This document shows, in pieces, positions 1-4,597 of a DNA stretch of 4,597 bases (the first letter of the stretch is position 1; every line of letters begins with the position of its first letter). This DNA comes from a virus (taxonomy: Duplodnaviria > Heunggongvirae > Uroviricota > Caudoviricetes). A program made the position numbers and the translations under genes. The notes beneath the pieces are model-generated. The model saw only the letters and a program-made list of their open reading frames with translations. It made no database searches and was not told the DNA's origin. The stretch is taken from the IMG/VR virus record IMGVR_UViG_2734482566_000007. One strand, written 5' to 3'.

Positions 1-60
1 CTCTCGTCTGGGGAATATCTCCCCGGCAGCCTTCAGGGAAAAATATCATCAGATGGCTGC

Positions 61-414
61 TTAAAAAAAGAACAAATGGTAGTGTCCGCTATTGCCAGTA
101 CACCTCAATTGCTCTGCGGCTTCGCTCAGAGCTGGCGTATGTTCCCGGCCTACTGATTCACACAGGTAATCAACGAAACCGGACACCAGTTTTCGTTCGC
201 GAGGCGTGATCGCCCCACCGACCGGAGTCCAGTAATCGAAACCCAGTTGCAGGAGTTTGAAAAAACGCTTGTGGAATGCGTAGTTACACACACGCTTAAA
301 GTCTGCGTGTATCCACTCACCTATTTTGATTTGATGCAGAAAATCGCAACTCTCCGGCGTCGCCGGGAGAAGTAATCCGGAAGAGGTTTGTTTGACCAGT
401 TGTATATGTGCCAT
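61..414 (-). CDS. Hypothetical phage protein, 117 aa from the ATG at 414 (the ORF track extends it to a TTG at 456); possibly a NinB/YbcN-like (DUF1367-type) protein
   Basis: Open frame ending at TAA 61-63. The codon at 456-454 is TTG, not ATG. The first ATG (414-412) has a GGAGA Shine-Dalgarno 7 nt upstream (minus-strand ccGGAGAaagccgATG). Family assignment is a weak recollection based on the motif ...RVCNYAFHKRFFKLLQLGFDYW... and the position downstream of the replication genes. Confidence 0.55.
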   Translation of the reverse strand: MAHIQLVKQTSSGLLLPATPESCDFLHQIKIGEWIHADFKRVCNYAFHKRFFKLLQLGFDYWTPVGGAITPRERKLVSGFVDYLCESVGREHTPALSEAAEQLRCTGNSGHYHLFFF

Positions 415-989: not shown

Positions 990-1145
990 TTACTTCCTGG
1001 ATTCGTAGTCTACGAAGACAGCGACCTCCGTCTGGCCGGTTCGGATTCGTACCTCACAGAGGTCTTTCCTCGTTACCAGTGCCGTCACTATGACGGTTAA
1101 ACAGATGACGATCAGGGCGATTAACATCGCCTTTTGCTGCTTCAT
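990..1145 (-). CDS. hok: Hok/Gef family type I toxin, 51 aa (MKQQKAMLIALIVICLTVIVTALVTRKDLCEVRIRTGQTEVAVFVDYESRK); closest in my recollection to HokD/RelF
   Basis: ATG at 1145-1143 with AGGAG 9 nt upstream; stop TAA 992-990. Single transmembrane helix followed by the conserved RK.LCE.R....EVA..Y Hok signature. The 70-aa ORF in the track is an in-frame upstream extension and is unlikely to be the real start. Confidence 0.85.
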   Translation of the reverse strand: MKQQKAMLIALIVICLTVIVTALVTRKDLCEVRIRTGQTEVAVFVDYESRK

Positions 1146-1321
1146 AGCCTGCTTCTCCTTGCCTTTCGGCATGTAAGAGGCTAACCTACATGTGCAAAGC
1201 ATGAAATTGGCCTCAGATTAATGTTAAGCGTCTTGCCGGACGCGTAATGTTAACTGGGGCTTTTCTCTATCTGCCTTTTGGTGTTCATGCCTGAAGCAGA
1301 TAGCCTCAAGCACCCGCAGTC

Positions 1322-1351: not shown

Positions 1352-1372
1352 TCAGAAAGGTGCCCCATAAAA

Positions 1373-2059
1373 TCACTCCTTCTCTTCTTTACCGTAGTGG
1401 AGTTGACCAATTTTGATAAGAGGGCGTCCCTGAGATTTGCGGTGTAGATTGGTATCGCGCAGAGAATACACACAGCCACAATATTCCTGCTGATAGAATT
1501 TTTCGCGCTTGCTGATTTCAATCATACGGGACGAGCCGCCCTGCTTGCGCCAGTTATAATCCCAGTACACCATGCCCGGATAATGCGCGACGGCTCGCCG
1601 CCCACAGTCGTTAACCTGCTGCATATTTTTCCAGCGTGAAATGCCCAGTGAACTGCTGATCACACTGAAACCATTTTCAGCGGCGTACAGCGCTGTCCGC
1701 TCAAAACGCATGTCAAAACACATGGTGCAACGGATCCCTCGTTCGGGCTCCCATTCCATTCCTTTGGCTCGTTCAAACCAGTTGTCTGTGTCGTAATCAG
1801 CATCAATAAACGGCACGCCGTGTTGTTCAGCAAAGCGAATATTCTCATCCTTACGAATTAAATACTCTTTCTGAGGATGAATGTTCGGGTTGTAGAAAAA
1901 GATGGTGTAGTCGATTCCCGAGGCCTGAAGCGCCTCCATCACCTCACCGGAACATGGAGCACAGCAAGAGTGCAGTAGTAGTTTGTTTGCCCCGTTTGGG
2001 AGCTCCAATTTGGGCCGTTTGAAATCAGCAACTGTCATAAATATGTTTATTGGGGTCAT
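1373..2059 (-). CDS. queH: Epoxyqueuosine reductase QueH (DUF208 family), 228 aa (221 aa if translation starts at Met8)
   Basis: N-terminal [12 protein letters not shown] cysteine motif and C-terminal EYCGCVYS motif are characteristic of DUF208/QueH. ATG at 2059-2057, stop TGA 1375-1373. No clear Shine-Dalgarno before either candidate start. Confidence 0.75.
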
Positions 2060-2179
2060 AAAAATATCAAAGAGTGTAGCATTAGAACGGGGCTATCGGA
2101 AACAGATGTGTGACTGCTCCCCGCCCTTTCGGGTGGTCTCCTGATGATTTGAGGGTGCAGAAATCCCTCCGGTTAAGGA

Positions 2180-2206: not shown

Positions 2207-2620
2207 TTATTCAGTTCTGGATTTTGTCGCCCTGCGTATCCGCGCTTTCGCGTTACGCTCAATCTGTATCAGCTTTTCTATATTTCTCCGCCTTTCCTGT
2301 TCCTCCTGGCGCAATAGCCTTACATCATCTGCCAGTCTGGTTTCTCTTTTTGCCACAGAGAGCATCCAGTCAAACGGCTCCACAACCGCACCGCAGATTT
2401 TACAGCGGACCTGACGCTCTTTTTCGTCAACCCGTACAGAGGCGTGATGGCAATATGGTCTTTCCGATGGCTCATAAAGAAAATTAACCTGATTACGAGG
2501 GTCATCCTCTTTTACCGGAAATAAAACGATATTGCTTAACTCATCTTCTGGTTTTATTTCCATGCTCCTCTCCTTTGATGCGAATGCCAGCGGTAATTGA
2601 AGCCTGATAGCTAATTTCAT
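2207..2620 (-). CDS. Hypothetical Zn-ribbon-like protein with a basic coiled-coil C-terminus, 137 aa (118 aa if translation starts at the internal ATG at 2563)
   Basis: ATG 2620-2618 directly abuts the TGA (2623-2621) of the upstream gene, suggesting translational coupling; AGGAGG lies 11 nt upstream. The internal ATG at 2563 has a stronger SD (aaAGGAGAGGAGcATG). Putative metal ligands in ...PYCHHASVRVDEKERQVRCKICG...; C-terminus is Arg/Glu-rich. Confidence 0.6.
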   Translation of the reverse strand: MKLAIRLQLPLAFASKERSMEIKPEDELSNIVLFPVKEDDPRNQVNFLYEPSERPYCHHASVRVDEKERQVRCKICGAVVEPFDWMLSVAKRETRLADDVRLLRQEEQERRRNIEKLIQIERNAKARIRRATKSRTE

Positions 2621-3043
2621 TCACAGTATCGCCTCCTGAAAATTACCCTGATAGAAAGCCAGTACACGCTGCATAGCTTCGCTCTTCCGGCACTCGCGAC
2701 AGATTATATTCAGGCGCCTGTCGTAGCGGCGTATTTCTCCGTCAGGTAATGACCAGATAAGGTCCGGATCAACAACAACCGGTTTCCTCACCTTTACTCT
2801 CGAGAGTTTTTTGCGGGCGCTTTGCCAGTCCTTGCGAGCCTGTTCAGACGGGAATAAGCCGTAGCCAGAATTATATACATCACCACTTGCGACCAGTTCT
2901 ATGCATAAGCGACCGACAGACGCACGACTGATACCTGTTTCATCTGACAACTGCCGAATCGTGACCCGACCGTCCTGATGCACGAGTTCCACAATTCGCG
3001 TCTTCAGTTCTTCCCGCTGTTCGGGAGTAAAAGGTTTCGCCAT
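2621..3043 (-). CDS. Ren-like winged-HTH protein, 140 aa (resembles lambda Ren in the HTH and C-terminal ...RECRKSEAMQRVLAFY... segments, with an internal insertion of about 45 aa)
   Basis: ATG 3043-3041 with AGGAGG about 6 nt upstream; stop TGA 2623-2621. Lies immediately downstream of the DnaC-like gene, the same position as ren after P in lambda. HTH segment VTIRQLSDETGISRASVGRL. The Ren assignment is from a recalled sequence and needs a search to confirm. Confidence 0.65.
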   Translation of the reverse strand: MAKPFTPEQREELKTRIVELVHQDGRVTIRQLSDETGISRASVGRLCIELVASGDVYNSGYGLFPSEQARKDWQSARKKLSRVKVRKPVVVDPDLIWSLPDGEIRRYDRRLNIICRECRKSEAMQRVLAFYQGNFQEAIL

Positions 3044-3057
3044 AAATCCTCCTGAAA

Positions 3058-3819
3058 CTACTTAACAACCCTCGAATGGCTAACATTCGGACGCCAGCTC
3101 TCCCAGTTAAAATTCACCCAGCGCCCGCCGTTCATGACCATGCGATCCATCACCCGCTCGCCGAGCAATGTTTTCATCACCTCATAGTTCAGGTGATGAA
3201 AACATTGCTCGGCGAGCGGGTGATGGATCGCATGGTCATGAACGGCGGGCGCTGGGTGAATTTTAACNNNNNNNNNNNNNNNNNNNNNNNNNNNNNNNNN
3301 NNNNNNNNNNNNNNNNNNNNNNNNNNNNNNNNNNNNNNNNNNNNNNNNNNNNNNNNNNNNNNNNNNNNNNNNNNNNNNNNNNNNNNNNNNNNNNNNNNNN
3401 NNNNNNNNNNNNNNNNNNNNNNNNNNNNNNNNNNNNNNNNNNNNNNNNNNNNNNNNGATAGCTGCCGCTAAGTGATTCTTCCCGGTACCAGGTTTTCCGC
3501 TGAACGCAAAATTTGTACACCCGGTCATCAGTTCATCGGCGATGGATTTCGCCTGGCTTAACGCGTATCGCTGGCCGTCGTTCTGCACCTGGTAATTCGC
3601 AAACGAGCATTTACGGTGCAACGGCTGGATGCCTGAGCGATTCAGAATTTTTTCCACCCGCAACTGGCGATTCAGGCGGTTGATCTCCTCGCTACGTTTC
3701 TGGCCTTCAGCAAGTTGCCACTCGCGCCACTCCGCTACCGTTCTGAATGGGGCGGTTACATGTGGCGGGGTCAGTCGGCGGATGCGTTCCAGAACGCCGC
3801 CTGTCGCAATATTTTTCAT
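3058..3819 (-). CDS. DnaC-like replicative helicase loader (AAA+ ATPase), coding sequence interrupted by an assembly gap and a fold-back artifact
   Basis: ATG 3819-3817. N-terminal part closely resembles E. coli DnaC / prophage YdaV-type proteins, including Walker A FSGKPGTGKNHLAAAI; genuine C-terminus ...NYEVMKTLLGERVMDRMVMNGGRWVNFNWESWRPNV... Residues between are N-masked (3268-3456) or come from an inverted duplicate (3191-3267). Confidence 0.85.
   Translation of the reverse strand: MKNIATGGVLERIRRLTPPHVTAPFRTVAEWREWQLAEGQKRSEEINRLNRQLRVEKILNRSGIQPLHRKCSFANYQVQNDGQRYALSQAKSIADELMTGCTNFAFSGKPGTGKNHLAAAIXXXXXXXXXXXXXXXXXXXXXXXXXXXXXXXXXXXXXXXXXXXXXXXXXXXXXXXXXXXXXXXVKIHPAPAVHDHAIHHPLAEQCFHHLNYEVMKTLLGERVMDRMVMNGGRWVNFNWESWRPNVSHSRVVK
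3106..3267. repeat. Perfect 77-bp inverted duplication (arms 3106-3182 and 3191-3267, 8-bp spacer) ending exactly at the N gap; probable fold-back assembly artifact
   Basis: The reverse complement of 3191-3267 is identical to 3106-3182. The left arm encodes the conserved DnaC C-terminus; the right arm gives non-homologous residues (VKIHPAPAVHDHAIHHPLAEQCFHHL) where the AAA+ core should be. Confidence 0.8.
3268..3456. other. Assembly or scaffold gap, 189 N
   Basis: Run of N. Gap plus artifact arm totals 266 nt, close to the roughly 260 nt expected for the missing DnaC-like core, so the reading frame is fortuitously preserved. Confidence 0.95.
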
Positions 3820-4174
3820 GGTCCGTTACCCCCTGAAGCCTGGCGGGATCGCACTGTCCGGCAACGAGACGGTGTTAACCTGTCGGAGCAACGTCTCAGG
3901 CCGAACACCTTTCGGCGCGAACAGGCCCTGGTATTCATTGGCGATGCTGTGTCGAATCACCTGCTCAGGTGTAAAACCCTGCTGACGGAATTTTTCCAGT
4001 TCCCGTATCGCCCCGTTAGCGCCCTGCTCCGTTCGAATCGGTTTTCGCAATGCCTGTCTGAACCGGACCCACTCATGCCAGAGTGTTTCCGGCAACCAAT
4101 CGGGCAGCTCAATAGCCTCCGGCTCGAATTTTTTAGACGCTCGTTTTTGGCGAGGGGGAGATCAGTATTTAGAT

Positions 4175-4194
4175 CTTCCTCTTCCTCTTCCTCT
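4175..4194. repeat. (CTTCCT)3 hexamer tandem repeat encoding the poly-Glu linker of the replication initiator
   Basis: Plus 4175-4192 is three exact CTTCCT units plus CT, translating on the minus strand as (GAG GAA)3. Confidence 0.8.
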
Positions 4195-4217
4195 GGTAAC
4201 GCTTTTTGATCCGTTTG

Positions 4218-4238
4218 TGTAACGCTGGCAGCGTTACC
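4218..4238. repeat. Dyad element A: TGTAACGC-TGGCA-GCGTTACC inside the initiator gene
   Basis: 8-bp arms are exact reverse complements. Near-identical to element C at 4425-4445. Confidence 0.6.
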
Positions 4239-4263
4239 TTTTCGTTTCAGTTCGCGTATTTTT

Positions 4264-4283
4264 GTTACTCGCTCGTTTGTAAC
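4264..4283. repeat. Dyad element B: GTTAC-N10-GTAAC inside the initiator gene, flanked by T-rich tracts
   Basis: Same GTAAC/GTTAC core as elements A and C, in the opposite arm order. Confidence 0.45.
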
Positions 4284-4424
4284 CGCCCGTTTTTTAGAGC
4301 TTTTTCCGTTATGACGTTCAAAGTTAGGTAGAGAAAGCCCTCCGTCATTTTCGACCAGCCATCCAACCTGAATTAACGCATCAGCAAAACCAGACATAAA
4401 AGTGATGCGATCTATTGCACTTTT

Positions 4425-4445
4425 TGTAACGCCGCGAGCGTTACA
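4425..4445. repeat. Dyad element C: TGTAACGC-CGCGA-GCGTTACA inside the initiator gene
   Basis: 8-bp arms are exact reverse complements. Shares the TGTAACGC...GCGTTAC consensus with element A about 207 bp away. Confidence 0.6.
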
Positions 4446-4597
4446 ATCTGCATTACCGTCTATCATTTGTTGATCCGCCCATGCCCAGAAGCGAATAACC
4501 TGAGGTAGCCTGAGTTTAACGGACACTCCTTCCTGAAATAGAATGGCATCAGAAGGAGCTAATAATGAGCAGAAAAACCCAACGTTACTCTAAAGAG

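Follow-up and report, generated by a model that had tools for sequence, protein, structure and literature searches.

A conserved queH gene carried as prophage cargo in Escherichia coli, a proposed B12-independent second route to queuosine

The last step of queuosine (Q) synthesis, the conversion of epoxyqueuosine (oQ) to Q at position 34 of tRNA, is known to be carried out by more than one enzyme. QueG is cobalamin-dependent (PMC4646009) and is one of four cobamide-dependent enzymes of E. coli (PMC11841063), a species that has tgt, queA and the full Q pathway (PMC5372724). QueH is a non-orthologous, B12-independent replacement of QueG (PMC5372724). In S. aureus, both QueG and QueH are kept and are differently expressed, which the authors credit to cofactor availability (PMC13443448). 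On the viral side, Hutinet et al. (2019) reported that QueA, QueG and QueH are missing from the deazaguanine-encoding viruses of their analysis (PMC6884629), and no paper on phage- or prophage-borne QueH in E. coli was found in the accessible literature. Here, we analyse a stretch of 4,597 nucleotides from a Caudoviricetes virus (IMG/VR record IMGVR_UViG_2734482566_000007), referred to throughout as the window, and a gene on its minus strand that almost certainly encodes QueH.

We conclude that this gene is probably a functional, captured QueH cassette that offers a second, B12-independent route to Q. The gene in this exact form is already known, as the identical protein bears the RefSeq name "epoxyqueuosine reductase QueH", and the enzyme as such is routine. 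The under-described part is the context, namely that queH is common, conserved cargo of E. coli lambdoid prophages. The window contains an uninterrupted open reading frame (ORF) at 1373..2059 on the minus strand, 228 codons long and without an internal stop. The features of the gene are as follows, with residues numbered along the 228 amino acids of this ORF:

1373..2038, minus strand: queH coding sequence, 221 amino acids plus stop, from M8 of the 228-codon ORF; PGAP coding sequence WP_012421537.1, "epoxyqueuosine reductase QueH"
2039..2059, minus strand: seven in-frame codons that begin with the upstream ATG at 2059, probably 5' untranslated region and not coding
Residues 27-37, minus strand: N-terminal cysteine signature, which contains CCAPC
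1952..1966, minus strand: CCAPC motif with Cys32, Cys33 and Cys36, aligned to C9, C10 and D13 of T. maritima QueH
1718..1729, minus strand: CxxC pair, Cys111 and Cys114, invariant in the alignment with T. maritima
1472..1480, minus strand: CGC motif (YCGC; residues 194-196) with Cys194 and Cys196, invariant in the alignment with T. maritima

Residues 27-201 match the Pfam family PF02677 (QueH, formerly DUF208) over model positions 1-174 of 175, with 220.6 bits against a cutoff of 23.5 (E 1.9e-65); as a sequence match, this is far above chance. The QueH of T. maritima (7lc5) is matched by phmmer over residues 27-203 (E 5e-22). The cysteines C32, C33, C111, C114, C194 and C196 are invariant in the alignment with T. 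maritima and near-invariant across 150 diverse representatives of the QueH family, clustered at 50% identity. Cys is found in the columns of C32, C33, C111 and C114 in 119, 122, 138 and 135 of these representatives, respectively, and in the columns of Cys194 and Cys196 in 92 and 89 among the sequences that cover the column. In the column of residue 36, 115 Cys are found versus 4 Asp among ~125 representatives; judging by these counts, Cys36 at the position of T. maritima Asp13 is no defect, and Cys is the family majority state. The Protein Data Bank (PDB) contains C9S and D13N mutant structures of T. maritima QueH, at residues equivalent to CCAPC positions; therefore, the depositors consider those residues mechanistically important. 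According to Li et al. (2021), these residues reportedly hold a [4Fe-4S] cluster and an adjacent Fe site, and the definition of the QueH family is said to go back to Zallot et al. (2017).

The predicted fold points the same way. An AlphaFold model built from 27 sequences (predicted local distance difference test, pLDDT, 76.3; predicted template-modelling score, pTM, 0.78) has the QueH fold with its adenine-nucleotide-alpha-hydrolase-like Rossmann core. In a Foldseek search against the PDB, the top five matches are all T. maritima QueH entries, with a target-normalised template-modelling score (TM) of 0.82-0.86 and a root-mean-square deviation (rmsd) of 2.5-2.9 A. The list is led by 7lc5 and 7lc7 (TM 0.84-0.85, rmsd 2.5-2.7 A), and the runners-up are the PP-loop enzymes TtuA, LarE and TilS at TM 0.3-0.4. 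An earlier note on this DNA had called the gene QueH/DUF208 from the cysteine signatures near the N-terminus (the motif at residues 27-37) and near the C-terminus (CGC at 194-196), and had proposed a profile search and an alignment to characterised QueH as a check. Both signatures are present, the DUF208 match is significant, all ligand residues are kept, and the call is borne out by Pfam, by the T. maritima match and by the fold. It should be noted that an NCBIfam scan matched no QueH model; the PGAP name must rest on another type of evidence, and this miss was not counted against the QueH identity.

The start of translation is most likely ATG 2038 (M8, 221 amino acids) rather than ATG 2059, because several lines of sequence comparison converge on it. 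In homologs from 14 genera, the N-termini begin level with M8 in the alignment and the 7-codon extension is missing; the PGAP start is ATG 2038 as well. In the seven codons between 2059 and 2038, differences among alleles are almost only non-synonymous (MTPINIF, MNLINTF, MTPIKIF); the rest of the gene has a ratio of non-synonymous to synonymous substitution rates (dN/dS) of 0.025-0.076 among prophage alleles. In one IMG/VR allele, an additional C between the two ATGs places ATG 2059 out of frame. Thus, of the ORF 1373-2059 given in the earlier note, the intact reading frame stands and the start moves downstream. No Shine-Dalgarno sequence was found upstream of either ATG 2059 or ATG 2038, in agreement with what that note had remarked.

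The prophage alleles of queH are under strong purifying selection. Their dS reaches 0.29 and their dN does not exceed 0.016, which corresponds to the dN/dS range given above, and all 86 loci inspected retain an unbroken 221-codon ORF and the seven Cys. The purifying selection and the intact ORFs argue against a decaying passenger. The gene is also frequent. Of 5426 complete E. coli genomes, 995 (18%) have a gene with the RefSeq name "epoxyqueuosine reductase QueH", with at least 80% of the gene covered in 985 of the 995, whereas queG is present in all 5426 and, hence, in every queH carrier. These counts, together with the filling of the same slot by other cargo elsewhere, agree with the expectation that queH is accessory and not a core phage gene, and that E. 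coli normally relies on QueG for this step. The exact 221-amino acid protein and its commonest allele are each found on more than 1000 contigs named QueH (E. coli, Shigella, "Enterobacteriaceae"), and 189 viral contigs of IMG/VR encode this QueH. The carriers include O157:H7 strains, strain B and one isolated phage, HannyBb, a complete lambdoid phage in which queH is recorded as a "hypothetical protein". Other tblastn matches in the phage collection (short unannotated faecal contigs, records of 280-380 kb, short fragments) are likely bacterial DNA and were left uncounted. Three queH copies, along with several matches to slot-flanking genes, lie on E. coli plasmid records of ~94-97 kb, which may be phage-plasmids with this early region on board.

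The relatives of the protein suggest where the gene came from. The closest proteins outside Escherichia, at 79-92% identity, are the QueH of Enterobacter-like bacteria, Kluyvera, Scandinavium, Erwinia, Providencia, Photorhabdus and many other Proteobacteria, the best matches being Enterobacter-like, Kluyvera and Scandinavium at 89-92%. Five donor-type contexts were examined, and all are chromosomal and non-phage (purL-queH-glrK, tmcA..queH..purC, BenE, LysR/acetyltransferase genes). Homologs of the lambdoid neighbour genes of the window were found in one of 80 species-representative loci, that of E. albertii. Because the nearest relatives are chromosomal and non-phage, and E. albertii alone has lambdoid neighbours, the prophage gene is, by this comparison, a captured housekeeping-type chromosomal queH of Enterobacterales. 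The synteny of Enterobacterales queH genes showed no single conserved chromosomal neighbourhood, so no specific donor lineage can be named. QueH is also highly conserved across classes, with 76-82% protein identity between the E. coli prophage copy and those of Sphingomonas, Pseudomonas, Stenotrophomonas, Paracoccus and Acetobacter, which suggests either very strong constraint or wide horizontal spread; a "Bacillus subtilis" contig that matches QueH at 78% is probably contamination.

To delimit the cassette, the window was compared with queH loci in differing prophage backbones. The mobile unit is ~745 bp long (window ~1364-2109) and consists of a 71-nt leader and the ORF. Of 80 IMG/VR loci, 63 lose homology upstream at window 2109, as do HannyBb, strain B, S1-CAM-02-A and O157:H7 Z563; downstream, a homology boundary lies at ~1364-1367 in some loci. 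The elements at and around the edges are:

2039..2109, minus strand: AT-rich leader of 71 nt (GC content 0.352) that travels with queH; 2109 is the 5' cassette edge
1364..1372, minus strand: 3' cassette edge, ~9 nt past the stop codon; the HannyBb and strain B alleles diverge directly after TGATTTTAT
2073..2081, minus strand: TGCTACACT, an extended -10-like element and candidate cassette promoter
2121..2136, minus strand: GC-rich GAAA-tetraloop hairpin (CCACCC-GAAA-GGGCGG) just outside the cassette upstream, without a U-tail and not called as a terminator

The element TGCTACACT is invariant in 13 of 13 distinct leader variants. In a 12-position consensus scan of 2060-2206, neither a promoter nor a terminator was called, and TGCTACACT was likewise uncalled. 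An RNA element or riboswitch upstream of the gene was considered and rejected, as the E-value scan against Rfam found none near queH (the only matches were sok and artefactual miRNA matches) and the fold of the leader is barely more stable than that of shuffled sequences (z -2.0). The intergenic gap 2060-2206 has exactly the 147 bp stated in the earlier note; the AT-richness ascribed to it is mild (GC 0.429 versus 0.492 for the window) and is more pronounced in the 71-nt leader. As to the separate regulation that the note had read from this gap, the scans called nothing in it, whereas the invariant TGCTACACT would fit a promoter that moves with the cassette. In sister loci, the hairpin has a perfect CCGCCC stem, and in three IMG/VR loci the homology boundary lies inside it, at window 2133.

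The surroundings of the cassette are lambdoid. The flanking genes that define its position are:

2621..3043, minus strand: DUF977/Ren-like gene, the usual upstream anchor of the slot (Pfam DUF977, E 1.1e-33; phrog_142)
990..1315, minus strand: hokD/mok toxin gene and sok region, the usual downstream anchor of the slot (Pfam HOK_GEF, E 9.8e-23; PGAP hokD)
2207..2563, minus strand: small zinc-ribbon-like protein (phrog_1621, function unknown), the upstream neighbour in the window

All neighbours are on the strand of queH: upstream, an O-like replication gene, the DnaC-like ydaV, the DUF977/Ren-like gene and the small zinc-ribbon protein; downstream, hokD/mok with sok, a phrog_340 protein and NinB/DUF1367. 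A region of E. coli FDAARGOS_944 is 99.9% identical and lies within a complete-looking prophage with integrase, excisionase, RecE/Gam, Cro/CI, lysis, terminase, head and tail genes. The neighbours and this prophage thus confirm that the gene is prophage-borne, between replication and nin-like genes, as had been proposed. The slot lies between DUF977 and hokD, and its commonest order is DUF977-queH-hokD; in this commonest context the phrog_1621 gene is missing and DUF977 immediately precedes queH. DUF977 is upstream of queH in loci L001, L002, L009, L011 (O157:H7 Z563) and L012. Some genomes without queH have DUF7167, DUF551 or hypothetical genes between DUF977 and hokD. In O157:H7 Z563 (L011 1806-3816), queH is followed by an NgoMIV-type type II restriction endonuclease and a DNA cytosine methyltransferase in the usual position of hokD. 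In strain B, queH lies within a degraded, IS-flanked, truncated Qin-like element. The survey of gene neighbourhoods across lambdoid prophages that the earlier note had called for therefore finds queH at a fixed, variably filled slot with sharp boundaries. queH is variable cargo between the replication/DUF977 and hokD/nin genes of Rac/Qin-like lambdoid prophages, and the slot acts as a small defence/accessory hotspot. An Rfam match to sok (117 bits) lies at window 1140-1315 on the minus strand, that is, on the strand of hokD/mok, although Sok is known as an antisense RNA of the hok mRNA; the model probably spans the leader region of the sense strand.

The activity of the gene product in E. coli would be that of a cobalamin-independent iron/iron-sulfur reductase converting oQ34 to Q34 on tRNA-Asp, tRNA-Asn, tRNA-His and tRNA-Tyr, as we infer from the family, the ligands and the fold. 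The cassette would give the lysogen, and the phage while it replicates, a corrinoid-independent second route from oQ to Q. Such a route could be of benefit because every E. coli has QueG, which depends on imported corrinoid; corrinoid supply in E. coli is by uptake through BtuB only. Read-through during the lytic phase would be expected because queH is oriented like the early-right genes and is not separated from them by a predicted terminator, and a weak promoter of its own is possible. As to the beneficiary, such read-through, like the rise of Q/oQ through queG reported for phage-infected Shewanella, would fit the replicating phage, whereas retention of queH in degraded prophages favours the lysogenic host. 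We regard a corrinoid-independent conversion of oQ to Q as the physiological role with about even confidence. Three points weigh against it and against the reading of the cassette as a second route. No phenotype is known to us that distinguishes oQ from Q; corrinoids are usually present in the gut, so that an argument from B12 scarcity loses weight; and the leader has neither a promoter called by the scan nor a Shine-Dalgarno sequence, so that expression in the lysogen is uncertain.

A further-reaching proposal, that the queH cassette is a lysogenic-conversion factor that uncouples Q maturation from corrinoid supply with measurable phenotypic effects, is tentative and in our judgment rather doubtful. 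If it were true, the Q-tRNA of carriers would be fully reduced even under B12 scarcity or after loss of BtuB (the link to BtuB loss under colicin or phage selection is speculative), and measurable effects would be expected on translation, on stress or virulence phenotypes or on phage yield. The natural presence and absence of queH would then be the first clean handle on the physiology of oQ versus Q. If the enzyme is active, about one in five E. coli genomes would be able to finish Q without B12, which would be relevant to studies of Q-dependent translation, biofilm and virulence and to competition for corrinoids in the gut.

Several other explanations of the cassette were weighed. queH might serve only as a helper of the lytic phase, silent in the lysogen, transcribed from pR with the delayed-early genes and raising the Q/oQ ratio for phage translation. 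The location of queH on the replication/nin strand, with no terminator predicted between and no promoter called by the scan, is compatible with this idea, and phage infection of Shewanella is reported to raise Q and lower oQ via induction of queG (bioRxiv 10.64898/2026.03.05.709803). However, even degraded prophages, among them the Qin-like element of strain B, keep queH intact and purifying selection acts on it there, which points to a benefit for the host, and the invariant TGCTACACT moves with the cassette. Neither is there a skew in NAU/NAC usage between prophage and host genes: late and early prophage genes alike have a NAU/(NAU+NAC) of 0.541, as against 0.53-0.65 for a sample of host genes, a difference that is not significant in this small sample (Fisher p 0.26 and 0.36, that is, ~0.3). 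To our knowledge, no difference in decoding between oQ and Q has been described, hence the codon test is weak; as far as it goes, it lends no support to the suggestion in the earlier note that the phage uses queH to influence codon-biased translation. A purely lytic helper is therefore unlikely. That queH is a selectively neutral passenger, a chromosomal gene gained by illegitimate recombination that persists since the slot tolerates cargo, is considerably less likely still. Although the slot holds many unrelated cargos (DUF7167, DUF551, the NgoMIV-type restriction-modification system) and the activity duplicates that of the universal QueG, a passenger of this kind is hard to reconcile with a dN/dS of 0.025-0.076 at a dS of up to 0.29, with disruption in 0 of 86 loci, and with the presence of the cassette in 18% of complete genomes on several prophage backbones.

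Participation in a phage pathway of 7-deazaguanine DNA modification, and thus in the evasion of restriction, had also been suggested; we consider this exceedingly improbable. The connection consists of shared chemistry only, in that Q, dPreQ0, dADG and dG+ all derive from the preQ0 pathway (PMC6884629). The annotations of the FDAARGOS_944 prophage and of the complete HannyBb genome contain no DpdA/TGT-like gene and no FolE, QueC, QueD or QueE, which is the outcome of an annotation check and not of a profile scan of every ORF. Moreover, QueH works after the base has been inserted, on tRNA-bound oQ that QueA has made there, PADLOC gave no match, and the viruses analysed by Hutinet et al. lack QueA, QueG and QueH (PMC6884629). 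A neofunctionalised enzyme, with another substrate or with a role in defence or counter-defence (for example, altered Q-tRNA anticodons versus anticodon nucleases like colicin E5), would fit a hotspot that adjoins hok/sok and, in O157:H7 Z563, a restriction-modification system. Nevertheless, the protein is 80-90% identical to chromosomal QueH, the ligand positions and the other invariant positions are unchanged, and the cassette comes without a partner gene. Membership in a defence system was rejected, as PADLOC matched no model to QueH or to the neighbouring small proteins and gave sub-threshold noise only for DUF977. Neofunctionalisation is thus highly improbable, and a functional QueH cassette that provides a second route to Q remains the reading that we favour.

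The annotation status of the gene deserves attention. The PHROG family of queH, phrog_3217, is listed with "unknown function", and its model begins at residue 41, past the CCAPC motif. An SD-like (Shine-Dalgarno-like) GGTGAGGTG precedes the internal Met41 (window ~1937-1941), where this model starts. The late start of phrog_3217 is probably a gene-calling artefact in the source phage records, because residues 8-40 are conserved at the protein level. PHROG-based annotation would label queH "hypothetical", which may be the reason for the HannyBb entry. Thus, a tRNA-modification gene is effectively invisible to phage-centred annotation, in PHROGs as well as in the HannyBb record.

Some irregularities of the window itself were observed. 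A run of 189 N occupies 3268-3456, and the sequence before it (3191-3267) is a perfect reverse complement of ~3107-3183, inside the DnaC-like ydaV; the inverted duplication together with the N run looks like a scaffold-gap or assembly artefact. The artefactual Rfam miRNA matches fall on both strands of this assembly palindrome. Two overlapping ORFs (3957-4526 and 3826-4095) make up the O-like replication-initiation gene; 10 gapped positions relative to the intact 262-amino acid gene of FDAARGOS_944 indicate a frameshift, so that either the gene is a true pseudogene or the sequence is in error. Homology to the FDAARGOS_944 prophage, otherwise 99.9% identical, is lacking at window positions 1-107, which are a mosaic junction or a chimeric contig end; in consequence, the NinB/DUF1367 ORF ends early, at 131 amino acids (Pfam model positions 1-102 of 198).

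Compared with the systems described so far, the protein of the window is closest in structure to T. maritima QueH (PDB 7LC5, 7LC7, 9DEU), with which it shares a full-length profile match, the fold, six Cys, His30 and the FFYNPNI and YCGC blocks. It differs in having CCAPC where T. maritima has CCAPD, in ~19 extra N-terminal and ~25 extra basic C-terminal residues, which are common to the aligned proteobacterial homologs, and in being carried by a prophage whose host species has QueG as well. With QueG (YjeS; cobalamin and [4Fe-4S]) it shares the same final step, oQ34 to Q34 on tRNA (PMC4646009, PMC5372724); the two are unrelated in family and cofactor, and QueG is core whereas queH is accessory (5426 versus 995 of 5426 genomes). 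The chromosomal queH genes of Enterobacterales have the same length and termini, at the protein identity of 79-92% given above, whereas in E. coli, E. albertii and Shigella the gene is carried by prophages.

Phage 7-deazaguanine clusters (DpdA with FolE/QueD/QueE/QueC; Hutinet et al. 2019) are alike in that genes of the queuosine/preQ0 pathway are borne by phages, whereas their defining genes are not annotated here and the target of QueH is tRNA, not DNA. The cassette resembles the moron or accessory cargo of lambdoid phages (hok/sok, restriction-modification, DUF7167/DUF551) in its variable presence at a fixed slot, its sharp boundaries and its dispensability for phage growth. In contrast to a classic moron, neither an own promoter nor a terminator was called for queH by the scan, and its base composition is not distinct. 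What sets queH apart from such lambdoid cargo is also the nature of its product, a housekeeping-type tRNA-modification enzyme.

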